Origin: a virus
IMG/VR virus record: IMGVR_UViG_3300050034_000187
Coordinates: 71,866 to 135,865 of that record
DNA length: 64,000 bases
Reading direction: 5' to 3' (one strand)
Program-made: the position numbers and the translations under genes
Shown: piece by piece, positions 2,692 to 59,176 of the stretch
Position numbering within the stretch: position 1 is the first letter of the stretch
Layout of the letters: each line of letters opens with the position of its first letter
The notes under the pieces: generated by a model
The model's input: only the letters and a program-made list of their open reading frames with translations
Database searches by the model: none
Told to the model about the DNA's origin: nothing

Positions 2692-3981
2692 ATGTTATTA
2701 ATTAGATCAACAAATCACTCAACTAAATTTTGTAATACGGGAAAATTAAATTCCTTAAAAGAATTTTTAGTTGAATATAATAAAGTAAAATGGGAATTTG
2801 TTGATTACCTATGGAACAACAGAATTTGTTGGAATAATAAAATCTTGGATATTAAAAATAATAAATTGGATTGTCCAAAATTTATATCCACAACAAATAT
2901 TCCAATTGATACTGATCTATCCGCAAGAGCCATTAAATTGACAAGCGGTGAAGCCCTTGGGATTATTAAAAGCCAAATAGAAAAACGAAGAAAACAGTTT
3001 TATATTCTTAATAAAAAGCAACGAGATATGGATATTATATCAAGTGCAAAAATACAATCCAAAATTGATAGTCATCCATTAATTAAGCCAACCAAAACAA
3101 AAAATATATTATTTGCTAATTTAGATTCCTTATGTTGTAATTTTAAAGAAGAAATAAATAATAAGAATTTTAATGGGTTTTTAGAACTAACATCATTATG
3201 GAAAAACCAACATAGATTTAAAATACATATTCCAATCAAATATACCAGAAATACTAATAAATTTAAAAATAATAATTGGGAATTAAAAACCAGTTGGCAT
3301 GTTCAATTAAATCAGGTTTCTAGCAGATGGGAAAAAGAAATACCTAAATCAATGGGAACTAAAATAGTTGGTGCTGATCAAGGTGCAACCACTTGCATTT
3401 CTTTATCAGATAAACAAGTTACCGGAAAAAATAAAGCAGGGTATGACCTAGCAGATATTATGAAAATATTAGCTAGAAAACAACCGGGAAGTAATGGATA
3501 TAAGAAAGCCCAAGATCATAGAGTTAATTATATAAATTGGGCGATAAAACAATTAAACTTAGATAATATTAAAGAGCTAAGATTAGAATATTTATATTTA
3601 TTAAGAAATGGAAACAAGACATCGAAATTTCTTAATAGATGGACATACACCCAAATAAATAGAGCAATATATAATGCATGTGAATTACATGGGGTTCAGG
3701 TAATAGAGCAAGCAGCGACATATAGAAGTCAAAGATGTTCTGGATGTGGGTGGGTACAAAAAACCAATAGGAAGCGAAAGGAGTTTATTTGTGCATCTTG
3801 CGGATTTATTGAAGATGCAGATATAAATGGCGCACTTAATCATGAAGTTGACTTATATCAACTCCCGTTTGGTTTTTATCAATTAAAATTAAATAATACC
3901 GGGTTTTATTGGCTGTCAACCGGCGTATTTAATATTAATGGTCAGGAGCTTATAGTCCCTGATGTATATAAAACAAATTGA
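2692..3981 (+). CDS. tnpB: TnpB RNA-guided nuclease (IS607-associated)
   Basis: RuvC-I IVGADQG, RuvC-II LRLEYL, Zn finger CSGC..CASC, RuvC-III DADING all intact. Confidence 0.9.
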   Translation: MLLIRSTNHSTKFCNTGKLNSLKEFLVEYNKVKWEFVDYLWNNRICWNNKILDIKNNKLDCPKFISTTNIPIDTDLSARAIKLTSGEALGIIKSQIEKRRKQFYILNKKQRDMDIISSAKIQSKIDSHPLIKPTKTKNILFANLDSLCCNFKEEINNKNFNGFLELTSLWKNQHRFKIHIPIKYTRNTNKFKNNNWELKTSWHVQLNQVSSRWEKEIPKSMGTKIVGADQGATTCISLSDKQVTGKNKAGYDLADIMKILARKQPGSNGYKKAQDHRVNYINWAIKQLNLDNIKELRLEYLYLLRNGNKTSKFLNRWTYTQINRAIYNACELHGVQVIEQAATYRSQRCSGCGWVQKTNRKRKEFICASCGFIEDADINGALNHEVDLYQLPFGFYQLKLNNTGFYWLSTGVFNINGQELIVPDVYKTN

Positions 3982-38589: not shown

Positions 38590-39359
38590 TCGTTTCCTAT
38601 ATTATTTAATAAACCATTTCCATATTTAGATCGAAGAATATTAATATATTCTTTTGCTTTGACATTTATCAGATAGCATTTGCTATCAGTCCATAATTCA
38701 CGAGGATCATTGCTTGCTTCTGGTAATCCTTCAATTGGTACTACCGAAAATCCCAAGTTTACTGGATCATACATTTCATCTAGATAAACAATCATCTCTG
38801 CATCAGTTTTAATATTTATATCATTGTTAAATATACTAGCTGCCAAACCATCATAATGCATATCTCGGATCATAGATTGATAACTACTATCTGAAATACC
38901 ATAAGATGAATATATTCTATTCCACTCATACATGCGTCTTCCTTGAATATTAGTTAACCATATATCTCTTTGCGGGCAAATTCCTATCTTTGCACCATTA
39001 AATGGTAGCACAATATAAACTCCACCGTTTTTATCATTGTCCTGACTGAATAATTCAGCGACATGCCGACTGGTAGAACATATCAACGACTTACTTCTTT
39101 TTGGATAGTTCTGCCAACTTGGAAGATTATCGATCAATAAAGTATAATAATTTTCTGTATTTGCACTTTTTCTTTGAGAAGCCGATGGATCAACTAACAT
39201 TACGGGAAGAGTATTAATTCTAGTTCCTCGAAATATCATTTTTCCATTAGAACAAGCTTCTAAAGCATCAGAACAGCGCCCTTCTATCTTTGCAAAATTA
39301 TCATTAGCTTTGCCGTTCTTTTCAAAAACTTCATATTTTAATACTTCATTTATTCTCAT
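38586..39359 (-). CDS. putative R-S-E ART-fold protein (paralog family), MRINEV start
   Basis: IFRG, RKSANTENYYT, PKRSKSLICSTS, ELW; TATAAATA upstream. Confidence 0.6.
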   Translation of the reverse strand: MRINEVLKYEVFEKNGKANDNFAKIEGRCSDALEACSNGKMIFRGTRINTLPVMLVDPSASQRKSANTENYYTLLIDNLPSWQNYPKRSKSLICSTSRHVAELFSQDNDKNGGVYIVLPFNGAKIGICPQRDIWLTNIQGRRMYEWNRIYSSYGISDSSYQSMIRDMHYDGLAASIFNNDINIKTDAEMIVYLDEMYDPVNLGFSVVPIEGLPEASNDPRELWTDSKCYLINVKAKEYINILRSKYGNGLLNNIGND

Positions 39360-39373
39360 ATAAGTATTTATAA

Positions 39374-39685
39374 CTACCAATACATAGCATCAAAATCAGC
39401 ATCACTTAATCTTCCGCGATTTTTTGATCCATAAGTATCCGTTTGACTATGACAATTAGGACAAAGAAATCTCAGATTTTCCGGAGAGTTATTCAAAAAA
39501 TCCCCATCAATATGATCTATTTGTAATAATAAGTTATTACTATTCCATTCGCAGGAACATCCGCAAATACCACACTGATAAGGAAATCCATATTCAAACA
39601 TTGCTCTTCTTAATAATGCAGTATTTGTTCTAGATTTCCTTCTTCCATTTACCAAAATATCTTCGTAACACAATCTCTTAAACAT
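39374..39685 (-). CDS. HNH endonuclease
   Basis: CGICG; LQIDHIDGD..NN..ENLRFLCPNCHSQT. Confidence 0.9.
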   Translation of the reverse strand: MFKRLCYEDILVNGRRKSRTNTALLRRAMFEYGFPYQCGICGCSCEWNSNNLLLQIDHIDGDFLNNSPENLRFLCPNCHSQTDTYGSKNRGRLSDADFDAMYW

Positions 39686-39689
39686 AAAA

Positions 39690-40478
39690 CTATTTATAAT
39701 TAATTATTTCTTGTAAAAACTGTGAATCTTCTTGCACCAAATAACTTTCTCCATTTGTCCAGACTTCATTATCATCAAAATCATTATTTAAAATAGTACT
39801 TATAGTTCCAATTTTAAACCCGGCTTGAGTTGGATTATATAACTCGGATATGAATTTTAACACATCTCCATTACAATTATTCCATGCTGTAGGAGCAGCT
39901 TCCACCGGATCATCAAATTGGGACTCTTCATTAGATAATTCATTTGCAAAGTGTTCTCTCATCCATCTATCTATATATCTTTTCTTTAATTCTAAAATAA
40001 ATTCTGCAAAATTATTATCTGGTAAATGATATTTATCAAATATTTTATTTAGTTTTACAATGTGAATATTATATAGTTTTGTTCCCCATATATCATTGTC
40101 AGGGCAAATTCCCCATTTGTTTCCATTCACAGGGAGAACAACATAACTATAGCCTCCCCCATAACCTCGTGCATACTCACAATTTGTAGAGCAAATTATA
40201 GATTGACTTCTTTTTGGAAACATACTCCATTCCGGTAGACTATCAATGATCATTGTATAATAATTACTTGTATTTGCAGACCTTCTAATAAATTTTGATG
40301 GCTCAACATGCACAATATCCGAATCTATGGACCGAATACCTCTGTATATAAATTTATTCTGCTTTGCTAAAAGCACTGCTTCAGAACAATTAGTAACTAT
40401 GTTCTTGATAGTATTATTTGTTAACTTTACTGGATTTTCCCGAGTAGTTTTATATTTAACGATTTCATTAATTTTCAT
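39690..40478 (-). CDS. putative R-S-E ART-fold protein (paralog family), MKINEI start
   Basis: IYRG, RRSANTSNYYT, PKRSQSIICST, EVW. Confidence 0.6.
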   Translation of the reverse strand: MKINEIVKYKTTRENPVKLTNNTIKNIVTNCSEAVLLAKQNKFIYRGIRSIDSDIVHVEPSKFIRRSANTSNYYTMIIDSLPEWSMFPKRSQSIICSTNCEYARGYGGGYSYVVLPVNGNKWGICPDNDIWGTKLYNIHIVKLNKIFDKYHLPDNNFAEFILELKKRYIDRWMREHFANELSNEESQFDDPVEAAPTAWNNCNGDVLKFISELYNPTQAGFKIGTISTILNNDFDDNEVWTNGESYLVQEDSQFLQEIINYK

Positions 40479-41226
40479 ATTTTCCACCTGTCAATGTATT
40501 AAACAACGGAGTGTTCCCTCTAATCAAATATGATTTAGAATTTGTCCAGACTTCACTATCCTTTCTTCCTTCCAATGAGTTTATGCTTCCATGAGAATAT
40601 CCCCACGCAACTGGATTATATAGTTGCTTAACAAATTCCAATGGGTTATCTTTATATTTCAACATCATATTACTTAATTGAATATAATATCTCCCATGCA
40701 CATATTCTAATATCTCACCAAAATTATTTGTATAATCATTAATGAAAGCCGATAGATTATCTTCAGATAATTTACACCTTTTCCATATTCCATTTAACTC
40801 GTATATGCACAAATTATCAATATATTTTGAATTTTGAAAATCAGTAAATGAACTTATGCCAAAATTAGCATTATCAAATGGTAATACCAAATATAAACTG
40901 TTAATAGAATCAGCATAATCTATGGCATACCCATAGGAAGTAGAACATATTAATGACTCACTTCTTTTTGGATATGCCTTCCATTCAGGCAGACTATCAA
41001 TCATCATTGTATAATAATTAGAAGTCCATTTTGATTTTCGTTTTTGCAAAGTTGGATCAACTAATAATACTTTATCGGTTATGTTGTTCAATCCGCGATA
41101 TACCCGTATATTATGTTGTGCCGCATCAAGTGCTTGCGAACAGTTCACTTTAATTTCATCATAAATATTTTCTGGATTATCCACTGCTAGATTTCTTTTA
41201 TCGCCAATAATCTCATTGATTTTCAT
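40468..41226 (-). CDS. putative R-S-E ART-fold protein (paralog family), MKINEI start
   Basis: VYRG, RKSKWTSNYYT, PKRSESLICSTS, EVW; ATAAATA upstream. Confidence 0.6.
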   Translation of the reverse strand: MKINEIIGDKRNLAVDNPENIYDEIKVNCSQALDAAQHNIRVYRGLNNITDKVLLVDPTLQKRKSKWTSNYYTMMIDSLPEWKAYPKRSESLICSTSYGYAIDYADSINSLYLVLPFDNANFGISSFTDFQNSKYIDNLCIYELNGIWKRCKLSEDNLSAFINDYTNNFGEILEYVHGRYYIQLSNMMLKYKDNPLEFVKQLYNPVAWGYSHGSINSLEGRKDSEVWTNSKSYLIRGNTPLFNTLTGGKYEN

Positions 41227-41249
41227 ATTAGTATTTATGTTTAAGACCG

Positions 41250-47091: not shown

Positions 47092-47508
47092 ATGAATATT
47101 AAATATAAGTCTAACAACAATATTGTCTATTCCTGCAAATATCATGTAGTCTGGTGTCCTAAGTATCGTAGGAAGGTTTTGACTGGCAAAATTGAAGTTC
47201 GTTTGAAAGAATTAATACAAGAAACATGTATTGAACTTCAATCAGAATTAATTGAACTAGAAATAATGTCAGACCATGTACATCTTCTTATAGAGGTTGA
47301 TCCTCAATTTGGAGTCCATAAAGTCATTAAAGTCATTAAAGCCATTAAAGGTAAAACATCAAGAATACTCAGAAAGGAGTTTCCAATACTAACATCCAAA
47401 ATTCCTACATTATGGACAAACTCATATTTTATATCTACCGTTGGTGGTGCGCCATTAGAAATAGTTAAGCAATATATTGAGAATCAGAAAACATCAGGAA
47501 GGAAGTGA
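47092..47508 (+). CDS. tnpA: IS200-type Y1 HUH transposase
   Basis: YHVVWCPKYRR, DHVHLL (HUH), LWTNSYF, YIENQ. Confidence 0.95.
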   Translation: MNIKYKSNNNIVYSCKYHVVWCPKYRRKVLTGKIEVRLKELIQETCIELQSELIELEIMSDHVHLLIEVDPQFGVHKVIKVIKAIKGKTSRILRKEFPILTSKIPTLWTNSYFISTVGGAPLEIVKQYIENQKTSGRK

Positions 47509-47512
47509 TAAT

Positions 47513-48610
47513 ATGCAGATAACAACACAAGTCAAACTACTTCCAACTCCCGAACAAATACTCTTGATTAATAGCACCATGCAAGAGTATATCAGTACTG
47601 CCAACAACATAGTTAATGATTATGTTGTTGGTGACAAAGGAACAAAGCATACATCTAAAACCGTTATTGCTAACTTGCCAAGTGCCTTGAAGAACCAAGC
47701 CATTCAAGATGCTAAAAGTATTTTCAAGAAGTACACTAAGAAGCTGAAAGCTAATGAAAAGAAAGAAACTGACAAACAAAAAATCATCAAAGTTCCAATT
47801 CTCAAAAAGCCTATAGCCGTATGGAATAATCAGAACTATGCTATCAAATTTAGCTATATAACCTTTCCTGTTTGGCTTAATGGCAAGTCCACTAGAATTT
47901 TAGTTAAAGCCGTCATAACAGACCATCAAGCGAATCTAATAACCAATAAACTAGGCACTCTACGAATAACTAAAAAGTTAGGGAAGTATATTGCCCAAAT
48001 TGCCGTTGAAGTTGAACCAATACTATCTACTGGAACTATCGCTATGGGAATAGACTTAGGCTTGAAGATACCTGCTGTAGCGGTAACTGAGAGCGGTAAG
48101 ACTAAATTCATTGGCAATGGTCGGCAGAATAAATACATGAAACGTAAAAATCGTGCTACTCGTAAAAAACTAGGCAAGTTGAAGAAACAAAAAGCAATCA
48201 ACAAACTAGATAACAAAGAACAACGATGGATGCAAGATGCCGACCATAAAGTAAGTCGTCAATTGGTCAATTTCGCAGTAACTAATAATGTTGCAGTAAT
48301 TCGACTAGAAAAACTATCTGGCATACGTCAGACGGCAAGAACAAGCCGTAAAAACGCAAAGAATCTTCACACATGGTCATTCTACCGATTAGCTAATTTT
48401 ATCGAATATAAGGCAATTTTAGAGGGTATTAAGGTTGAATATGTCAATCCTAAATATACTAGTCAGACCTGTCCTGCCTGTGGTGAAAAAAATAAGGCTA
48501 ATGATAGAAAGTATAAGTGTGGATGCGGTTATAAGAAACACCGCGACATGGTGGGTGCAATCAATATCATTTCTGCACCTGTGGTAGATGGTAAAAGTCT
48601 ATCAGCCTAG
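47513..48610 (+). CDS. tnpB: TnpB RNA-guided nuclease
   Basis: RuvC-I GIDLG, RuvC-II LEKL, TSQTCPACG..CGC, RuvC-III RDMVGA.NI. Confidence 0.93.
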   Translation: MQITTQVKLLPTPEQILLINSTMQEYISTANNIVNDYVVGDKGTKHTSKTVIANLPSALKNQAIQDAKSIFKKYTKKLKANEKKETDKQKIIKVPILKKPIAVWNNQNYAIKFSYITFPVWLNGKSTRILVKAVITDHQANLITNKLGTLRITKKLGKYIAQIAVEVEPILSTGTIAMGIDLGLKIPAVAVTESGKTKFIGNGRQNKYMKRKNRATRKKLGKLKKQKAINKLDNKEQRWMQDADHKVSRQLVNFAVTNNVAVIRLEKLSGIRQTARTSRKNAKNLHTWSFYRLANFIEYKAILEGIKVEYVNPKYTSQTCPACGEKNKANDRKYKCGCGYKKHRDMVGAINIISAPVVDGKSLSA

Positions 48611-49830: not shown

Positions 49831-50733
49831 ATGGGAAAGACAAATTGGGGAGTTGTAATCGGACGATTTCAGTTGGATAATCTGACAGAAGCGCATAAGC
49901 TTCTTCTAGCAAAGGTTTCATCAAAGCATCCTCGGGTGGTTGTATTTATTGGAGTGCGGGCAGGTTGTTCAACTTCAAATGACCCTTTGGATTATGCAAC
50001 CCGAGAGAAGATGATTCGAGCAGAAGTTCCGAATGCTATTATCTCTCCACTTCGAGACGAGAAGTATGATGAGGATTGGTCACGTAATCTTGACAATAAG
50101 ATTCTTGAAATTACAGGATCAATTCCCGCAGATATTACTCTTTATGGTGGCAGGGATAGTTTTGCAACAAGTTATCTTGGACGATTTTCCGTAAAGGAAT
50201 TGGAGCTTGAAGTACCCATTGAAATTTCTGCAAGTAAGGTTCGAGCATTCATCACAGACAATGTGATGAGTTCAAGTGATTTTCGAGCAGGGGCAATTTA
50301 TGCTCTTCAGCAAAATTTTCCGAAGGTTTATACCACGGTTGATATTGCGCCAATTCACGGTGATGAAATTCTGCTAGGAAAGAAGAAGATGGATCGTGGT
50401 TGGCGCTTTCCGGGCGGATTTGTAGAAGTTCAAAGTGAAGATAGCTCTCTTGAAGAAAATGCTAAGCGAGAACTTCAAGAAGAGACTGCGTTGAGCGTTA
50501 GTTCTATCCATTATATTACTTCTCATGTGATAAATGATTGGCGATATAAGGGAAGTCCAGATAATATTATGACAACCTTTTTTCTTGCTCATACTACCGA
50601 TCTTGCTGCAAGGGCCTCCGATGATCTTGATTCTGTGAAGTGGTTCAAGCTTGCTGATGTAAATGAAGATATGTTCGAAGGGGAACATGCGCAACTTTGG
50701 AAGGCTCTGAAAAGTTATTTGGATAAGGAGTAA
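49831..50733 (+). CDS. bifunctional NMN adenylyltransferase / NUDIX hydrolase (NadM-NUDIX)
   Basis: GRFQ...LTEAH, DPL...R..MI, ISAS.VR, TVD, FPGGFV...ENAKRELQEET, DD. Confidence 0.9.
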   Translation: MGKTNWGVVIGRFQLDNLTEAHKLLLAKVSSKHPRVVVFIGVRAGCSTSNDPLDYATREKMIRAEVPNAIISPLRDEKYDEDWSRNLDNKILEITGSIPADITLYGGRDSFATSYLGRFSVKELELEVPIEISASKVRAFITDNVMSSSDFRAGAIYALQQNFPKVYTTVDIAPIHGDEILLGKKKMDRGWRFPGGFVEVQSEDSSLEENAKRELQEETALSVSSIHYITSHVINDWRYKGSPDNIMTTFFLAHTTDLAARASDDLDSVKWFKLADVNEDMFEGEHAQLWKALKSYLDKE

Positions 50734-50736
50734 TTT

Positions 50737-51063
50737 ATGCATAATAGGATTTGGTTTGCGGTGATGATATTTATGTTGTTGACTATCATCACCGGATGTA
50801 AAGATACTTCGGTTGTCGATGGAACACTATTATATAGGAGTATTGATCCCGCCCACGATGTAATGGTTATGAAGTCGGCTGGAAAACTTCAGTATGTTGA
50901 AACAGATCATATTGATGCCCGATATTATATTACCGTGGCAGGAATAAATTCGTCCGGAAAACATGTGCAAGAGAGTTTGGGAGTTCCAAAAGAATTCTAT
51001 GACTCTGCTCGGGCAGGAAATCATTTTGTATATTCAAATAAGCATTATTGGTGGAGTAAGTGA
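50737..51063 (+). CDS. putative lipoprotein
   Basis: signal peptide with ITGC lipobox. Confidence 0.6.
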   Translation: MHNRIWFAVMIFMLLTIITGCKDTSVVDGTLLYRSIDPAHDVMVMKSAGKLQYVETDHIDARYYITVAGINSSGKHVQESLGVPKEFYDSARAGNHFVYSNKHYWWSK

Positions 51064-51201
51064 TATATTCTCAAAATGGATTTTTTCAAAGAGCAAGAGA
51101 AGTACATGGCAAAAAGTATCTTTGTGATAAGATGAATTGAAATAAAATTATTATTATGTGTCCAATTTATTTCAATTTTAAAGTTAGTACAGGAGGATAT
51201 T

Positions 51202-51447
51202 ATGAATCTATTCAAGAAAACTATTACCAAGATTTGCGGAGATTACAAACGAGTGCATAAGTGTACTCGTTGTGGCGCGGTAAATGCTAATTTAACCATA
51301 GATATTTGCTGGTCCTGTGGTAGCAATAGTAATTATTTTGTTGATACGGTTGCTCGGCATGTTACCGAATCTGTCTATGAATGGTGGAAGCCATTTTCTT
51401 ATTCTTCTGGAGAATATTATTGGGAAGAATCTCCATATCAAGATTAA
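51202..51447 (+). CDS. small Zn-ribbon protein
   Basis: CTRC..CWSC; RBS GGAGG. Confidence 0.6.
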   Translation: MNLFKKTITKICGDYKRVHKCTRCGAVNANLTIDICWSCGSNSNYFVDTVARHVTESVYEWWKPFSYSSGEYYWEESPYQD

Positions 51448-51494
51448 TTGCACGCAAAATATGTGCTATAATTAATAATGAAAAGGAGAAATAT

Positions 51495-52919
51495 ATGGGG
51501 CAGGACTTGGTAATTAACAATTTGGATTTGGTGGATTCTTACAAGGATACGCAATTTTCAATGTATCCGACGGGTGTGGAAACAATTTATGATTATTTCG
51601 AACCTCGCGGCGGAATTTATCCATACACTTGTTTATTTGGTTTGCAGTATATTTTGAAGCGATATCTAGCGGGGGAGTTTGTAACTCAGAATATGTTGAA
51701 TGAGCAAATTGCGATGGTAATGCCGAATCATATGGGTCCACAATTTAAGTACAATGTTGCAGGATGGCAATATCTTATTGATGAATACGGCGGGCGTCTT
51801 CCAGTTAAGATTCGGGCAGTTCAAGAAGGTATTCCAATTCCAGTTAAGAATATTGTGTTAGATATTGAAAATACTGGGGGAAATAAGACTGCGTGGATTC
51901 CCAACTTTTTAGAAACAATAATTCAGCAATCATGGTACGGTTCAAGCGTTTTTTCTACCAGTCGCATAATTAAGGAAACAATTCATAATGCTCTGGTAAA
52001 GTCTTCAGAAAGTATTAATGGAGAATATCCTTCTCTTCCTTTTCAGTTGCATGATTTCGGTTTTCGCGGAGTTAGTTCAGTAGAATCATCTGCAATTGGG
52101 GGAGCGGCCCATCTTTGCAATTTTCTAGGGACTGATAATAAGATTGCAATGAGTTTTCTCCATCAGTATTATAATGCTCCATATGGATGTGGAAAGAGCG
52201 TGGTTGCTTCCGAGCATTCCGTGATGGAATTTTCTCTCGGAGAAGAAAATGAAGCGGAAACCGTTTCAAGAATTTTGGATGAGAATCCTATTGGAATTGT
52301 TTCTATTGTTGGGGATACCTATAATATTTTTAAGTTTGCCGATAATATTATTGGTAAAGAATTACATGATAAGATTATGAATCGTCCCGATGGAAGTAAG
52401 GTTGTAATTCGGCCAGATTCTGGTGAGCCTACGGAGATTGTTTTGTATGTTCTGAATTCTCTTGCAAATAGCTTTGGATATACCGTGAATTCGCTTGGCT
52501 ATAAGGTTCTTAATCCACATGTTGGCGTTATTCAGGGTGATGGTATGACTCCTTCATCTATTAAGGAATTGTTTGATGTAATTCTTACGCAGGGGTGGTC
52601 TGCGGAAAATGTTCTCACTGGTTCTGGCGGTGGGTTGCTTCAACGCATTAATAGAGATAGTCAAAAGTTCGCTATTAAGGCATCTGCTGCGATTGTTGAT
52701 GGAAAGGTGCTCGAACTATTTAAAGATCCTATTACTGATCCGGGCAAGAAGAGCAAACGAGGATTTCATTCATTGGTGTTTCGAAATGGAAGTTATCAGA
52801 CCATTAATCGAGGCCACGATGAAATTGTTCCCGATGATCTGCTTGAACCTGTATTCGAAAATGGAGAAATTCTTCGTGATCTTTCATGGGATACCATTTG
52901 CAAGAATGCCGCACTTTAA
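51495..52919 (+). CDS. nadV: nicotinamide phosphoribosyltransferase (NAMPT/NadV)
   Basis: DSYK..Q..MYP, LHDFGFRG, SEHS, IRPDSG, IQGDG, GSGGGLLQ, KDPITDPGKKSKRG. Confidence 0.95.
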   Translation: MGQDLVINNLDLVDSYKDTQFSMYPTGVETIYDYFEPRGGIYPYTCLFGLQYILKRYLAGEFVTQNMLNEQIAMVMPNHMGPQFKYNVAGWQYLIDEYGGRLPVKIRAVQEGIPIPVKNIVLDIENTGGNKTAWIPNFLETIIQQSWYGSSVFSTSRIIKETIHNALVKSSESINGEYPSLPFQLHDFGFRGVSSVESSAIGGAAHLCNFLGTDNKIAMSFLHQYYNAPYGCGKSVVASEHSVMEFSLGEENEAETVSRILDENPIGIVSIVGDTYNIFKFADNIIGKELHDKIMNRPDGSKVVIRPDSGEPTEIVLYVLNSLANSFGYTVNSLGYKVLNPHVGVIQGDGMTPSSIKELFDVILTQGWSAENVLTGSGGGLLQRINRDSQKFAIKASAAIVDGKVLELFKDPITDPGKKSKRGFHSLVFRNGSYQTINRGHDEIVPDDLLEPVFENGEILRDLSWDTICKNAAL

Positions 52920-52922
52920 TTA

Positions 52923-52972
52923 AATATACTCTTCATATTTTGGTTGACATCCTTGTATGAAGAGTATATTAT
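52923..52972 (+). promoter_or_regulatory. promoter embedded in a 15-bp inverted repeat
   Basis: AATATACTCTTCATA(52923)/TATGAAGAGTATATT(52956) around TTGACA(52944)-17-TATTAT. Confidence 0.7.
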
Positions 52973-52982
52973 TGTAATTAAT

Positions 52983-52999
52983 GCGAATATCAGGAAGGT
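52983..52999 (+). repeat. 17-bp direct repeat, copy 1 (copy 2 at 57520-57536)
   Basis: GCGAATATCAGGAAGGT, exact in both places. Confidence 0.85.
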
Positions 53000-53566
53000 G
53001 TGATGGAATATATAAATGATGCCAAAGAAGCTTCGCGATTAGAGAATGTCAAGGTATGGAAAAATATTAGCGGGAGAAATAAATTATTTCCGAATGAGCA
53101 ATATTGGAGTTTGATTGATGGAAATTCAAATGAAGCAGAGTCTCTTCTTAAGTCCGGTGCCATGTACAAATATCAAATGCATGGAATAACCAGAGAGCAA
53201 AATGATTTGGATTTATATGTCAGCAAGTATTCGATTGATGCATATTGCGGAGATTGGAATACTATTGTAAAATCTATAGGTATCTGCCCAAACGGAGGAA
53301 TTGTATATTTGGATTCAATTACCAATGTGAATAATCCAGAGGCATCCGAACTGGCAAATATTACTATGCAGTATAGTGGATTGCATACGTTAATTTGTGC
53401 TAATTATATTGCTGAAAATTATCATCATGGCGGTAAATTGGATGAGAGAACATTGTTTGAATTATTGACAATCCCGGCGGGATGGACTATGATTAATAAT
53501 AAGTATTATCCACCAAAAACTCATTTAACTCAGATGGTTACATACTTTTTTTGGAGAGAATTTTAA
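53000..53566 (+). CDS. hypothetical protein, possibly a degenerate Rossmann/MTase-like fold
   Basis: CGDW and GGIVYLDS segments; stop overlaps the helicase ATG. Confidence 0.4.
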   Translation: MMEYINDAKEASRLENVKVWKNISGRNKLFPNEQYWSLIDGNSNEAESLLKSGAMYKYQMHGITREQNDLDLYVSKYSIDAYCGDWNTIVKSIGICPNGGIVYLDSITNVNNPEASELANITMQYSGLHTLICANYIAENYHHGGKLDERTLFELLTIPAGWTMINNKYYPPKTHLTQMVTYFFWREF

Positions 53567-55509
53567 TGAAAATTTTTAGTTTGAATGTTGATAATTTATT
53601 TGATACAAAAGCAATGCCGCATGGTAGGTGGGAAGCAATTGATGAAGATCTATTGCAGAAAGTGCAAAATAAAAAGAAAATAAATACTGTTGCCTTTTCT
53701 GGTAATTATCAATGGCAAGAGGATGTTATTCATATGGTGGTGAATAACGATGTTTCTTTGATTAATAGTCCAACGGGTAGTGGTAAGTCGAATATTCTCA
53801 TGTGTTCTGCGGCAGTTTTATCATCGGTTGGATTTAAAACTATGATTATTTGCCCCCGCCAATCAATTGTGCATGGTTTTTTATCTAAAAATTTTATGTT
53901 TGAAAATAAAGAATACATCGGAAATGTATCGACAGTATCCAGCACAAATACGTATAATTCTATCAATAATATTAAAACATGGTTATTGAATAATAAAACT
54001 TCAAATACCATGGTAACAACTATTCCATCTTTTCTGGGAGCATTTAATTCATTTTCCGATGAAGAAAAGAATTATTTTATTGAAAATATTGCCCCTAAAT
54101 TTTGGATTGGAATTGATGAATTTCATCATGCGGGTGAAGAAGATACCGATGATAATACTACCGAGTTGGGAAAGATAGTCAAAGAATTACTTACAATGAA
54201 AATTCGTATGGTTGGCTGCACTGCCACTTATTTTCGTAACGATGATATGCCGCTATTTCCCGGTTTACATTTTGCTCTATTTGATTCAGTAACTAAAATT
54301 GGAAATCAATATGTGCGGGAATTTATTGATCATTTTTCTACTTTGAATCTTGATAGTTTCACTTTGAATATTTTTGGTTCTGATCTTGACCCAATGGATG
54401 ATCTAATTGCTAATATTCAAAATGAGCCAAATGAAGTGCATCTTGTTTGCATTCCGGCACTGCTTCCAACTCATGCATATTGCAATGAAAGTTGGAAAAG
54501 CAAAATTCGTTTCTCCTTTAAAGAATTATTTGGAGATACCTGCATTGATTTATTGGGAGAAGATAGGCATGATAATTTGAAGAAATTAATTAAGGCAAAT
54601 TGTGAATATGAAAAATCTAATGTTTTCCCATATAAGGTTATTTTGTCATGTGATATGGTGCGAGAAGGCACTGATATTATTCCGGCATCTAGATTGCATG
54701 ATTTGGCTCCTTCGAAAAGTGAAGTGAAGAAGCAACAAACTATTGGCCGGGTATTGCGGCGTGACCCTTGGGGAAATAAACACGATGCACAATACAATGT
54801 ATATTTTGCAAATTTTAATTCTTTTTATTCAGAAGAACAGCAGAAACAATTAGCATCTGATTTTATCATAGTTGCGATGGTTGGTCTTCTTACTTCATTG
54901 GATTATTTTGAACCCCCAACTATTAATCAAGCAGATAATAATATATGTGAAGAGGTATTTAACACTTCTGCAAAAGAAGTTAAAAGCTCGTTGATGACGA
55001 CATTATTGTTAGAGAATGGAGACAAAGAAAAAACAATTAATACGGTGTTGCAAAATAATAATATTTGTGGTATAAACAATAGGAAGAGAGCTAAAAAATA
55101 CCTTGAGAAATTGTGTATTCAATGGGAAAAAACTATTGATCAACCAGAAAAAGAAGTTGATAAAATCCCAACTAAGCAAGAAAAAGATAGTTCAACTATT
55201 GTAAAGAAACCTTCGGTGTGGTATTATTATCCAAATGGAGAAGTACAATACCTAAGTAAATTATATCCAGCATTGATGAGTAGCATTGGAAATTATTTTG
55301 GGAAATATACCGAAGGAATTATGCAAAAACTACGGCAGGATGTGAATTTTTTAAAAAGTGATCGAACGGATGCAATTTATGCAATTTATAAAGACCGATT
55401 CTCTGAGCGAAATAAAAAAGGAAAAACTGCTCGTAATAGAATGCGATCCAAGGGAATTCACAATATTTTAATTGAGGCGGGAAAACCTGAAAAAGATATT
55501 GACAGTTAA
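53566..55509 (+). CDS. SF2 (DExH) helicase
   Basis: Q-motif WQ, SPTGSGKS, IDEFHH, TAT, REGTD, QTIGRVLR. Confidence 0.88.
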   Translation: MKIFSLNVDNLFDTKAMPHGRWEAIDEDLLQKVQNKKKINTVAFSGNYQWQEDVIHMVVNNDVSLINSPTGSGKSNILMCSAAVLSSVGFKTMIICPRQSIVHGFLSKNFMFENKEYIGNVSTVSSTNTYNSINNIKTWLLNNKTSNTMVTTIPSFLGAFNSFSDEEKNYFIENIAPKFWIGIDEFHHAGEEDTDDNTTELGKIVKELLTMKIRMVGCTATYFRNDDMPLFPGLHFALFDSVTKIGNQYVREFIDHFSTLNLDSFTLNIFGSDLDPMDDLIANIQNEPNEVHLVCIPALLPTHAYCNESWKSKIRFSFKELFGDTCIDLLGEDRHDNLKKLIKANCEYEKSNVFPYKVILSCDMVREGTDIIPASRLHDLAPSKSEVKKQQTIGRVLRRDPWGNKHDAQYNVYFANFNSFYSEEQQKQLASDFIIVAMVGLLTSLDYFEPPTINQADNNICEEVFNTSAKEVKSSLMTTLLLENGDKEKTINTVLQNNNICGINNRKRAKKYLEKLCIQWEKTIDQPEKEVDKIPTKQEKDSSTIVKKPSVWYYYPNGEVQYLSKLYPALMSSIGNYFGKYTEGIMQKLRQDVNFLKSDRTDAIYAIYKDRFSERNKKGKTARNRMRSKGIHNILIEAGKPEKDIDS

Positions 55510-55527
55510 ATATAAACCTGCTATCAT
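55499..55527 (+). promoter_or_regulatory. sigma70-like promoter of the Cas12m-like gene
   Basis: TTGACA-17-TATCAT with extended TG; RBS GAAAGG. Confidence 0.7.
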
Positions 55528-55548
55528 TGAAAATGAAAGGAATATATT

Positions 55549-57552
55549 ATGGCACTTGCCAAGAACAAAGAAACTTTTGAAGCAAAGATGAAAAAGTATG
55601 ATGAAATGCGAGAAGATAACGAAAAAAGTGCGCAGGTATTGGCAAAGATTGAACGTTCTCGGCAGCAGTATATTATGCAAAATCAGGGATTTGCGCAAGA
55701 ATGCGGTATTAATCTTGGTAATAGTGTTACGCGGGTTGTAACCTATGCCGGATTTGGACACATTCATGAGGTTAATACCAATCTTACTGGTGAACAATAT
55801 ATGCGGTTGAGTCATGAATATTATAACGATTGTGCCGAGGCTCTTCAGCCAATGGTTAAAAAGTTTTGGAAGATGATTAATGGACCTATCGGAATGCAAT
55901 TTCAAAAACTTTCCAATGATATTAATACATTGTATGATACAATTCGAAAAATTAAATCAATTGCATTTCTTCAAAAGAATGCCACAGCAGAAATGAAAGA
56001 AGTAACTGACAAGCAAATTTCTGATATTAAAGATCAAATTTCAGTTTTTCAAAATCTGAAGTCGGAAATCATTCTACCGATGTATGATGAACGTCGCCAG
56101 AATATGAAAAAGCACGCCGAAGAAATTCTTGCTCTGAAGGATGAGAAGAATGCAATCATTACCGGCTGCCGCGCCAAGATTCGTGAGCAAAAGCTTTATG
56201 CCGGAGCATACAAGGCAATTGAGGCGGCAGTAAATGCATCCTATAAGAAAGTAACCGATACCAAGAATATTGATCGGCTTGAAATGCGTTATCGTTATGG
56301 CGATATTCGTACTGGCAACCCACCTTCCGAAAGTATGCTTACTTATCCTAAATGGGATGGGGAAGGAACAATTTATAGCAATCAGATTTCAGTCAATTAT
56401 TCTGTCAAGGATATTATGAATCGTATTAATACAATTGTACAGATTCGTAAGTATAATCCGCAAGTAGATAATGAAATTTTTGGTATGAAATCGTCATTTA
56501 CCGAAAAGAAAGTTCCTCTTTATATTGTAGCAATTGCCGATGCAATGGTGCACGATTCTCGCGGCAAGGCAAGCATTAAAACATGGTATGAAATTCCGAT
56601 GTTTATGCATCGTCCTCTTTCAGATAATGATTCGGATTCTGTTCTTGGGGTGAAAGTGGTTCGAACAAAGGTTGGATTTAAGCATTCCTTTGAGATTCAG
56701 TTTTGTATTAAGAAGGAAGTTTTTTTTGATAGAATTACCAATAAAAAGAAGGAAGTTTTCATTACTCCCACCTTTGAAACATTAGAAAATAATGATCTTC
56801 AATTTTGTACTTGGACAGACAATAGTGGAACTTCTGGAAATGGCATTATTCCATCAAACCTTTTTGTTGATAAGAAGATGACACAAAATGCTGATTTGCA
56901 GCGGCGAATTCAAGAACATCTTTCAATGATGAAAAACTATCTTGATAGCAATAAACTTTATAATTCACCAGAATTGCAAGTATATGCTGTTGATATCACG
57001 TCTGGAAGAAGTCAGATGCGGTATGCTTTTCGAGATTGGACAAATAAACTTATTACTTCAGATAAAAGTAAATATGACGATATTAAGCATCTTCGTTATT
57101 ACGCCCGGGATCGTCATTTGGAAAAGTCTCCAGATGGTAAATTTATTCCATATGGCGGGGATTATGAGGCAATGGTAGATCACATCGCCACTAACATCGG
57201 AAAACTATTCCCCACCATGAATCAAACATCTACGTATGCATATGCAGCGTTGCTAATATTTAATGAGAGGTTCTCTCATTTGTATACCTTTTATACCGAT
57301 GCATCAAGTAAGGCAGAACGTCAACGAAAAGAAGAATTTCGAAAGTTTGCTAAGAGTATTTGTGATACTTATAATAATGTAACCATCACAAATGTTAATT
57401 TTGCAACCCGCCGAATTACTCCAACTCAAAAAATTATTGCTCCTTCTATTTTTGTTAGTGTCTTGGAAAGCACCGCTGGTAATAATGGCGTTCGCTTAAT
57501 TAAACTGAAGGAAAAGAAAGCGAATATCAGGAAGGTCCGCGCTAATTCATAG
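55549..57552 (+). CDS. Cas12m (type V-M/V-U1)-like CRISPR effector, nuclease-dead and C-terminally truncated
   Basis: QYMRLSHEYYND, long coiled coil, LYAGAY, KWDGEGTI, WYEIPMFMHRPL, VKVVRTKVG match my recollection of Cas12m WED/REC motifs; RuvC acidic residues absent; CRISPR array 113 bp downstream. Confidence 0.8.
   Translation: MALAKNKETFEAKMKKYDEMREDNEKSAQVLAKIERSRQQYIMQNQGFAQECGINLGNSVTRVVTYAGFGHIHEVNTNLTGEQYMRLSHEYYNDCAEALQPMVKKFWKMINGPIGMQFQKLSNDINTLYDTIRKIKSIAFLQKNATAEMKEVTDKQISDIKDQISVFQNLKSEIILPMYDERRQNMKKHAEEILALKDEKNAIITGCRAKIREQKLYAGAYKAIEAAVNASYKKVTDTKNIDRLEMRYRYGDIRTGNPPSESMLTYPKWDGEGTIYSNQISVNYSVKDIMNRINTIVQIRKYNPQVDNEIFGMKSSFTEKKVPLYIVAIADAMVHDSRGKASIKTWYEIPMFMHRPLSDNDSDSVLGVKVVRTKVGFKHSFEIQFCIKKEVFFDRITNKKKEVFITPTFETLENNDLQFCTWTDNSGTSGNGIIPSNLFVDKKMTQNADLQRRIQEHLSMMKNYLDSNKLYNSPELQVYAVDITSGRSQMRYAFRDWTNKLITSDKSKYDDIKHLRYYARDRHLEKSPDGKFIPYGGDYEAMVDHIATNIGKLFPTMNQTSTYAYAALLIFNERFSHLYTFYTDASSKAERQRKEEFRKFAKSICDTYNNVTITNVNFATRRITPTQKIIAPSIFVSVLESTAGNNGVRLIKLKEKKANIRKVRANS
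57520..57536 (+). repeat. 17-bp direct repeat, copy 2
   Basis: GCGAATATCAGGAAGGT. Confidence 0.85.
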
Positions 57553-57665
57553 CAAATGACTTAGAAGATATTATGAATTAATTGTAACAAAATGTAACAC
57601 TACTTGGGGCGGTTCGCGTAATTCATTGCATAAGTAATTGATTGCACGAGAGTTAAAATGCCGCC
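57553..57665 (+). promoter_or_regulatory. CRISPR leader with IHF consensus site
   Basis: TAAGTAATTGATT (57631-57643) fits YAANNNNTTGATW; TTGGGGCGG(57604)/CCGCCCCAA(57661) inverted repeat. Confidence 0.6.
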
Positions 57666-57845
57666 CCAACAATAGGGTGCTCAATCCCTTTATAGTTGAG
57701 ACGCTGATATGTATTCGCCCAGTCTTGCCACTCAACACCAACAATAGGGTGCTCAATCCCTTTATAGTTGAGACCTAATTTATGTAAAATTTCTATCGGC
57801 TCACGCGGCCAACAATAGGGTGCTCAATCCCTTTATAGTTGAGAC
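57666..57845 (+). CRISPR. mini CRISPR array: 3 identical 37-bp repeats, 2 spacers (35 and 34 bp)
   Basis: repeat CCAACAATAGGGTGCTCAATCCCTTTATAGTTGAGAC at 57666, 57738, 57809; spacers GCTGATATGTATTCGCCCAGTCTTGCCACTCAACA and CTAATTTATGTAAAATTTCTATCGGCTCACGCGG. Confidence 0.93.
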
Positions 57846-57906
57846 TGACCGTTCCCTCTTTACAATTGAGAGTGAATGGTATATTATTTTTATAGAGGGG
57901 AATTAT

Positions 57907-58356
57907 ATGAAAACTGCACACGATTTTACCGGATTTCAACTCATCGTGGTATTGATGATTGTTGTTCCGTTTATTTTTCTTCCAGCAATGCTGTTTAGCT
58001 ATTACATGCATAGTACTCTTTTGGTACTTTGCCTGTTTTTTGCTAGTTGGCCTATTTCTGGGATGTTTACCGCTGCAATGCTTGGCTATTATGTTCGGAA
58101 AGCAGCAGACATTAATCGGAGGAATCATGTAGAAACTCCTTGCATTTTCTTTCCAAGAATTCTTGATCAGTTGACCAATGGACCAATCTTTGAATGGATT
58201 GCGATCTTTTCATGGATGTTTTTGTGCAGTATTGGTGGATATTTTATTTCTGTTTTCAACTTGGTGGTTTGCCATTGGATGAAGCAGCATATTCGTACCT
58301 TGATGGTGACCGAAGTTCAGAATGAAGTTTGGGATATGCGCCAAAATAATCGGTAA
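57907..58356 (+). CDS. membrane protein
   Basis: RBS GAGGGG; several TM segments; promoter TTTACA-17-TATTAT upstream. Confidence 0.6.
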   Translation: MKTAHDFTGFQLIVVLMIVVPFIFLPAMLFSYYMHSTLLVLCLFFASWPISGMFTAAMLGYYVRKAADINRRNHVETPCIFFPRILDQLTNGPIFEWIAIFSWMFLCSIGGYFISVFNLVVCHWMKQHIRTLMVTEVQNEVWDMRQNNR

Positions 58357-58402
58357 GAATTGTCAAAATCGTGCTATAATAAGGTTATTGAAAAGGAGAA
58401 AC

Positions 58403-58618
58403 ATGAATTATTTCGCAGATGGAACACAGGTTACTATTCATTCGCTCGGTATTGACACTCCCGGAGAATTCCATGCAATTGTTCGCGGGATTGCTGTCAA
58501 GGATAACGTCGAACCTGCCCAGATTTACATTCTGGAAATGGTTGATGTGATTGATGCCGACTACGAATATCGATTTGCTACGTTTCCTCGTGCTTGCCTT
58601 CGGGAAGGATGGAATTAA
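58403..58618 (+). CDS. hypothetical protein
   Basis: RBS AAGGAG. Confidence 0.6.
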   Translation: MNYFADGTQVTIHSLGIDTPGEFHAIVRGIAVKDNVEPAQIYILEMVDVIDADYEYRFATFPRACLREGWN

Positions 58619-58843
58619 ATGGTGGATATTATCAAGTTTGCAAATCCGGTGGGCGTCAGTAAGATAAGTGGATCTGGTGTGGTCACTTCAAAGATTGGAA
58701 AGGAGGATACGACCATTGCTGGTGTGGTGCTTTTTGCAGAAGCAACTCCCTATATCAATCTCAAATTGAATCGAAAAGTGACCATAGAAGAATTACATGG
58801 CATTATTTCCGAGCTTGCTGATTTGGAAAAAGCATTAAAGTAG
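58619..58843 (+). CDS. hypothetical protein
   Basis: coupled start. Confidence 0.55.
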   Translation: MVDIIKFANPVGVSKISGSGVVTSKIGKEDTTIAGVVLFAEATPYINLKLNRKVTIEELHGIISELADLEKALK

Positions 58844-58900
58844 TTGACAATCTGCTGATTTTTTGATATTATTTAAGAGTCCTAGAAAGGGATAATCACA

Positions 58901-59176
58901 ATGACGTATTCTTCTTATGCTACAGAAATGGAAAACGGTTGGAATAAGAATGTTATTGGGAAGAAGGCATACGCGCACGGATTGACCCGGGAGACGAAGA
59001 TTTTGTATTGCGTAGCCAAAATTAATAAGGCTCCGTATACCATCACAGATCGTACTTCTGGTTTAGTTATCCCCTGTGAGACAATTGAAGAAGCTCGTTC
59101 TGAGTTTGGTCGTATTCAGAAGAAGCTATATGCCAAAGGTTGGAAAACTTCAGATAAGATTTGCAAAATCTATTAA
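58901..59176 (+). CDS. hypothetical protein
   Basis: promoter TTGACA-17-TATTAT at 58844. Confidence 0.6.
   Translation: MTYSSYATEMENGWNKNVIGKKAYAHGLTRETKILYCVAKINKAPYTITDRTSGLVIPCETIEEARSEFGRIQKKLYAKGWKTSDKICKIY

Follow-up and report, generated by a model that had tools for sequence, protein, structure and literature searches.

Among the described CRISPR systems, those closest to the one reported here are built on the type V-M effector Cas12m (MmCas12m, 8HHL/8HIO; GoCas12m, 8PM4; PDB 23vw and 23vu). Known Cas12m proteins have retained both their RuvC triad (D-E-D, H-D-D or N-D-D) and their zinc finger, and GoCas12m recognizes TTN as its protospacer-adjacent motif (PAM) (PMC11013384; here and below, statements on published systems draw on passages of the cited sources). 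Phages are known to carry Cas12m whose triad is intact (bioRxiv 2026.09.14.751636), and Cas12r is an active nuclease (bioRxiv 2026.04.20.719267). We have analyzed a 64,000-nt stretch of viral DNA, hereafter the window (positions 71,866 to 135,865 of the IMG/VR record IMGVR_UViG_3300050034_000187), in which the original prediction had placed a truncated Cas12m-like protein with its own mini CRISPR array, acting as a stand-alone DNA-binding repressor. The finding is real and larger than first noted: the effector is one of four parts of a conserved CRISPR cassette carried by phages, where a gene for a predicted methyltransferase-fold protein, a helicase gene, a cas12 gene whose product has lost its catalytic residues (dead Cas12) and the array follow one another, and both spacers match other DNA exactly.

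The cassette effector resembles Cas12m in its profile match and coiled-coil REC, in a pseudoknot repeat of 36-37 nt ending in GAGAC, in its presence on phages and in a non-cutting mode, which is predicted here. It departs from Cas12m in lacking all three triad positions and the finger, in carrying an N-terminal extension and in having two enzyme genes attached. Membership in type V-M as described thus fails on three counts, namely the missing triad, the missing zinc finger and the extra genes, since this is not a single-gene module. A phage Cas-mu was reportedly described by Al-Shayeb in 2022.

Altae-Tran reported in 2023 Cas12m with Cas3, CasMu-V, which lost RuvC-III, as well as an SNF2 helicase accompanying the Cas9 of a phage (PMC10910872). 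The cassette is like the Cas12m-Cas3 hybrid and CasMu-V in that a non-cutting Cas12 is joined to a second enzymatic module, but it has a ResIII/XPB-like DExH helicase without HD nuclease, a methyltransferase fold and no transposase. The listed "cas12," "helicase" and "methyltransferase" rows of Table S3 of that paper hold no module combining Cas12, helicase and methyltransferase, and the word "methyltransferase" is absent from the main-text passages considered. Type IV-A CRISPR with CasDinG is likewise borne by mobile elements, nuclease-free, composed of a guide complex and a superfamily 2 (SF2) helicase, devoid of adaptation genes (in our case, Cas1 was the one searched) and aimed at competing elements (PMC11656645). 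In the cassette, by contrast, a class 2 guide module made of one protein stands where type IV-A has Cascade, the helicase is of an unrelated family and a methyltransferase fold is added. Other single-chain systems also combine an SF2 motor with a methyltransferase, but these contain a nuclease and an adenine methyltransferase and recognize their target with a protein domain, whereas the cassette shows no evident nuclease and would find its target through RNA. The main-text passages of the 2025 classification and of the TnpB/Cas12 survey do not contain "methyltransferase," and those of the classification mention no Cas12 counterpart of type IV-A DinG silencing. We found no description of a methyltransferase-helicase-dead Cas12 module in the searchable literature, which excludes subscription papers.

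The conservation of the cassette emerged from two kinds of search. Scanning for arrays by repeat shape yielded 29 stretches with 8 distinct arrays and led to a first relative, G001, with a 648-aa effector relative that ends at the matching place and is followed by 46 repeats. G001 was reached from the repeat alone and has the whole cassette, including upstream homologs of the window's two genes (36% identity for the small protein, 28% for the helicase). Two-sequence profiles gave back the seed locus only. A profile built from nine sequences of the methyltransferase-fold protein found 10 loci, G001 among them. The helicase gene comes next in nine (the contig of the tenth ends 91 nt past the first gene), dead Cas12 is reached in seven and the array in six, the others ending earlier, and no intervening gene was seen in any of these loci with enough DNA. 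Once near-identical contigs were collapsed, five complete loci remained as independent, namely that in the window, G001, virus records of 360 kb and 222 kb and the L048-L050 group, all with the order methyltransferase, helicase, dead Cas12, array. This order is kept even though the effectors are only 21-28% identical, and the first two genes form a single open reading frame (ORF) in two of the five, in L044 and in L048-L050. The two upstream genes, overlooked in the original prediction, accompany the dead effector in every locus with enough DNA, and the stand-alone arrangement originally proposed is not supported. As a limited control, neither partner gene was present in the 0.8-3.5 kb of upstream DNA available for five nuclease-type viral Cas12m-like loci. 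Small satellite arrays, each with about four repeats, were also observed, one between the methyltransferase and helicase genes of L039 (6800-7040), the locus with a 46-repeat array, and one upstream of the methyltransferase gene of L046 (1-290). The second small array of G001 has the position seen in L039.

The effector is encoded by the predicted 667-aa ORF at 55549-57552 (+). A sigma70-type promoter-like site (TTGACA-17-TATCAT, 11/12 match, extended -10 with TG) lies ahead of it at 55499-55527 (+), where it had been expected. It was the joint best of 27 sites scanned in 54000-59000; since shuffles gave 19.7 sites, the promoter call rests on score and position, not on count. Cas12m ancestry was corroborated in two ways. 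PADLOC returned its Cas12f model (4.7e-15) tied with Cas12u1 (V-U1/Cas12m, 5.4e-15), and a profile of five family members searched against PDB gave five top matches that are all Cas12m (23vw, 3.6e-16; 23vu, 5.3e-8; 8pm4, 0.002; 8hio and 8hhl, 0.011), the remaining three of eight rows being noise. The family aligns to the REC region of 23vw and 23vu, showing that the coiled-coil insertion of Cas12m is present. The single-sequence AlphaFold2 model, of low confidence (pLDDT, the predicted local distance difference test, of 34), contains long helices that are weakly in line with such a REC, and the ESM Atlas model matches TnpB/Cas12f-like clusters (template modeling [TM] score by query 0.42-0.59).

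The protein consists of an N-terminal extension, as first noted, the coiled-coil REC, WED and degenerate RuvC-I/II, without zinc finger or RuvC-III. In an alignment with nuclease-type Cas12m-like proteins, Thr occupies both the RuvC-I Asp and the RuvC-II Glu columns, the Asp and the Glu being absent as claimed, and the early stop is equally clear, with no CxxC and no DxDxN downstream of the APS column. The effector has 37 residues past this column versus 73-120 in zinc-finger proteins. The term "RuvC-less" holds for the lost catalytic residues but not for the RuvC fold, which is degenerate and clipped rather than absent. Nor is the protein further minimized, its 667 aa comparing with 547-685 aa in five nuclease-type viral relatives and 596 aa in MmCas12m (PMC11013384). 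The loss of zinc finger and RuvC-III would fit a protein that has been retained solely to serve as an address label.

These losses are shared widely. An exhaustive search returned 38 non-self proteins, of which 29, including the 23 best (several of them fragments), have no CxxC and no DxDxN past the APS column; the zinc finger is kept in the other 9. In a quick maximum-likelihood tree (39 rows of at least 540 aa, nine shorter hits dropped, no bootstrap, midpoint root), the effector (P0001) fell in a clade of 24 rows with a Shimodaira-Hasegawa-like approximate likelihood ratio support of 100. In this dead clade, Asp at RuvC-I, RuvC-III and CxxC past the APS column (zinc finger/TNB) occur in 0/24 rows each, and Glu at the RuvC-II column in 1/24. 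Being common to the clade, the losses are an old family trait and not a lesion, and with 22 distinct proteins sharing the truncation, the one-off lesion that the original prediction had named as its own refutation is ruled out. In a sequencing run of another study that spans 57380-57665 and with it the stop codon, 0 letters differ, which rules out misassembly as the cause of the short end.

Downstream of the effector, a leader (57553-57665, +) with a long hairpin abutting repeat 1 is followed by the array. As described earlier, three identical 37-nt repeats (57666-57702, 57738-57774 and 57809-57845, all +) enclose two unique spacers of 35 nt (57703-57737, +) and 34 nt (57775-57808, +). No further repeat copy was found in the 195,761-nt contig, and the exact 37-nt repeat has no match in IMG/VR. 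The array is indeed mini on this phage, with three repeats, but this is specific to it, relatives having 7 to 46. Likewise, the repeat hairpin is present but is not single: bases 9-12 pair with 21-24 in a second stem that makes a pseudoknot. This stem-plus-pseudoknot form is that of the MmCas12m CRISPR RNA (crRNA) (PMC10442227). Across eight related repeats, all four base pairs in the second stem show changes in both partners and 91% of cells pair, a score reached by 0/500 shuffles, with slid controls at 28-48%. Six of the eight repeats were chosen by a pattern that fixes the pseudoknot stem, so that the second stem alone offers a test free of this bias.

The stretch 57553-57702 folds with a z of -3.30 (1/200 shuffles as good), and a hairpin stands just ahead of repeat 1 in 5/5 family loci. 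A match to the IHF consensus lies at 57631-57643 (-), 35 nt ahead of repeat 1. A like motif is found at -36 in L039 and is absent from three other family leaders, giving a similar offset in 2/5 leaders where about 0.02 are expected per leader. A search of the window against Rfam gave no match, and no candidate trans-activating CRISPR RNA was seen. In run X2, one contig shows a one-repeat form with a joint skipping 143 nt, which may be repeat collapse. A degenerate copy of the repeat 3' half was noticed at 57853-57872, 7 nt past repeat 3, overlapping the promoter-like sites of the next gene.

The spacers were traced to targets in run X1, which may be the window's source sample. In this run, contigs join the window exactly at the first and last base of each spacer, with loose ends at 57703 and 57737 for spacer 1 and at 57775 and 57808 for spacer 2, and run on with at least 255 unrelated letters. 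We rejected another CRISPR array as the origin of these ends: the four flanks are unlike each other and unlike the repeat, so that the matches are protospacers. Both spacers thus have an exact target on DNA other than this contig, as the originally proposed use against host genes or competing elements implies, and no self-target was found in the contig or in G002. GTT stands directly 5' of both protospacers, with a chance probability of about 1 in 64 if all bases are used equally, in what are two cases only and with the printed letters taken as adjoining the junction. Depths estimated from bin depths, on the assumed contig placement, were 35 and 41 for the target contigs versus about 98-109 for the phage (~40%), which points to a different replicon, and possibly to one and the same replicon for both targets.

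Searches elsewhere gave no targets. Spacer 1 shares no exact 20-mer with GTDB genomes and no exact 18-mer with IMG/VR, leader and array gave chance-level matches only against phages and plasmids, the 46-repeat array of L039 yielded no target, and no cross-match of at least 18 nt was found among 85 pooled spacers and the fetched loci. Cas1 (PF01867) was not found in the contig or in three related virus records, including one that is 91% complete, in a search that did not extend to cas2 and cas4. GTN is the PAM of type I-D systems, where it is chosen by Cas4. The GTT flank, together with the IHF-like site in 2/5 leaders, hints that spacers may be supplied in trans by host Cas1-Cas2.

The first gene of the cassette (53000-53566, +) encodes a 188-aa protein of an unnamed family, without Pfam match. 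Its AlphaFold2 model, computed with a nine-sequence alignment, has a pLDDT of 89. Foldseek gave at least 500 matches at E <0.001 in a list of S-adenosylmethionine (SAM)-fold proteins, VIA-align matched proteins of the same kind (best Z 14.2, root-mean-square deviation 3.2, 163 aligned), and ESM Atlas returned class I SAM-methyltransferase folds at a TM of about 0.7. On these models, the protein is predicted to have a class I SAM-dependent methyltransferase fold, seven-stranded and Rossmann-like. The family has 32 invariant columns in nine sequences, including Asp40 and Asp105 at strand ends, and the invariant polar columns include K9, N16, D40, E45, Q59, H61, D105, N135, K173, T174 and Q178. 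In GTDB genomes, 14 candidate stretches for relatives were found and none was confirmed.

The second gene is a 652-aa ORF from TTG (53551-55509, +) encoding an SF2 DExH helicase/ATPase. Its likely start is ATG 53566, in which case the methyltransferase stop and the helicase start overlap by one base. Pfam assigned ResIII (1.8e-11) and DEAD (1.5e-9), and the Q motif, Walker A, DExH and motifs III, V and VI are kept in 6/6 homologs. The nearest solved relatives are, weakly, Rad25/XPB-type ATPases (4.3e-7). Pfam showed no HD family, and PADLOC gave only a weak Cas3 match over the ATPase core (E 3.5e-4).

We propose, with a probability of about 0.5, that the crRNA-guided dead Cas12 loads the SF2 motor and the methyltransferase-fold enzyme onto a target, which would likely be methylated, silencing or marking a rival replicon without cutting. 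By analogy with Cas12m, the effector would process crRNA out of its own array, and the loaded complex would bind matching DNA beside GTT. It might then recruit the helicase with its methyltransferase-fold partner; the motor would travel along the target while the partner, presumed to bind SAM and to act on DNA, methylates it, so that the rival replicon is silenced or tagged rather than cut. A helicase behind a non-cutting guide complex has precedents in type IV-A DinG (PMC11656645) and in Cas12m with Cas3 (PMC10910872). We advance more tentatively the stronger claim that this is a natural CRISPR-programmed DNA methylation machine, an RNA-guided epigenetic weapon with which jumbo phages spread a chemical mark over rival DNA.

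Several observations weigh against the model. The methyltransferase-fold protein has no glycine-rich motif I and lacks the [DNS]PP[YF] or PC motif of DNA amino- and C5-methyltransferases, with D-[TS]-[MIT] after strand 4 instead. Methyltransferases acting on RNA, on proteins and on small molecules are tied as matches to its fold, which singles out no substrate class, and the one DNA restriction-modification enzyme among the matches listed stands at rank 50 (Z 12.4). The effector can be made from its own strong promoter without the upstream genes, and for nuclease-deficient Cas12m, binding is already sufficient for protection (PMC11013384). The search for synteny set out mostly from the methyltransferase, only G001 being reached without partner genes, and some of the approximately 17 dead-clade proteins without genomic context may lack partners. 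The targets, moreover, come from a single run, possibly the window's source, and the depth figures hang on contig placement. Some of these points would suit a scheme in which dead Cas12 recruits the helicase as a long-range silencer in the manner of type IV-A DinG, with the methyltransferase fold as a non-catalytic adaptor or SAM sensor controlling the motor. Synteny and the methyltransferase-helicase fusion agree with it, as do the atypical motif I, the absent DNA-methyltransferase motif and the precedent of type IV-A, which acts with a helicase and no nuclease (PMC11656645). The 32 invariant columns, many polar, resemble an active site more than a scaffold, and we regard this scheme as rather unlikely.

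The enzyme could instead be active on RNA or protein, be it crRNA, the target transcript or a host or Cas protein, while the helicase remodels the R-loop or the ribonucleoprotein. Many of the best fold matches are rRNA or tRNA methyltransferases (RlmO, TrmN, METTL6, Trm4), and the modeled 188-aa protein appears to have no target-recognition domain. Those matches are, however, tied with unrelated methyltransferases, and the nearest solved relatives of the helicase are DNA translocases of the XPB/Rad25 kind, which leaves this option with a low probability. Slightly lower still we place the originally proposed stand-alone programmable repressor with passenger genes upstream. Its own promoter, the exact targets with a TT-containing flank and silencing by Cas12m through binding alone (PMC10442227, PMC11013384) speak for it; gene order kept across such diverged effectors, the satellite arrays that separate the two upstream genes in L039 or precede them in L046, and the nuclease-type relatives lacking partner genes in the available upstream DNA speak against it. 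As for a decaying Cas12m pseudogene or an assembly artefact, word-based searches with the effector retrieved only the effector itself, no further loci and no close relatives. The truncation is nevertheless clade-wide, being common to the 23 best of 38 non-self matches (some fragments), the stop region was confirmed by an independent study and both spacers match perfectly, making such an origin very improbable.

Further features were noted around the cassette genes. Ahead of the first gene, a sigma70-type promoter-like site (TTGACA-17-TATTAT, 52944-52972, +) was read by eye. A 17-nt exact direct repeat flanks the three genes, with copy 1 (52983-52999, +) holding the Shine-Dalgarno-like site of the methyltransferase gene and copy 2 (57520-57536) in the last codons at the 3' end of cas12. 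It is absent from four related loci, and the contig has 50 such pairs at most 6 kb apart; the repeat could be a recombination end or a regulatory site. Three RNA runs gave short contigs over the helicase end and the cas12 start, which cannot show transcription and were not used.

The parent virus record is a 195,761-nt contig, estimated to be 53% complete, whose genes for a major head protein, tail sheath, DNA polymerase, UvsX-like and DnaB-like proteins identify it as a large contractile-tailed phage. The sequencing runs with window DNA are peat metagenomes. The contig carries five TnpB-like genes with zinc fingers kept (74557-75846, 119342-120475, 155931-157004, 159500-160801 and 161225-162427, the first two being window 2692-3981 and 47477-48610). 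A relation of the effector to these ordinary TnpB genes was rejected, as tblastn gave no link and the TnpBs keep their zinc fingers. Directly upstream of the cassette (window 49831-52919) lie nicotinamide adenine dinucleotide (NAD) salvage genes, a nucleotidyltransferase-Nudix fusion and a nicotinamide phosphoribosyltransferase, and an NAD-dependent DNA ligase gene lies downstream; together, these may form a counter-defence neighborhood. At least 12 short genes of a paralogous family within window 4293-62458 share a C-terminal motif like EEEYLQxIME-stop (repeat family D1), and three dispersed, non-identical intergenic repeats of 80-107 nt (families D9, D11 and D15) lie in window 39073-41229. 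Among other viruses, Virus Rctr197k (KX853510) carries at L001 3512-6930 a 622-aa Cas12m-like gene, with an intact D-E-D triad and a zinc finger, together with a long array; the annotation of the gene goes no further than similarity to transposase. The same kind of viral Cas12m-like locus is seen in L013, L026, L027 and L028, while L031, L033 and L034 are viral arrays of like repeat shape with no Cas12m-like match in the available DNA.

The novelty of these results rests on the cassette and not on the effector alone. The cassette is directly testable, since its three genes together take up less than 5 kb, its repeat is defined, and two natural guides and one candidate PAM are at hand; if the stronger claim is true, it would be a ready-made three-part epigenome editor. 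Known CRISPR effectors cut, block or guide transposases. A conserved class 2 module passing its target on to a motor with a methyltransferase fold would add a new output, the programmable chemical marking of nucleic acid, and would make the phage cassette a new kind of RNA-guided machine.

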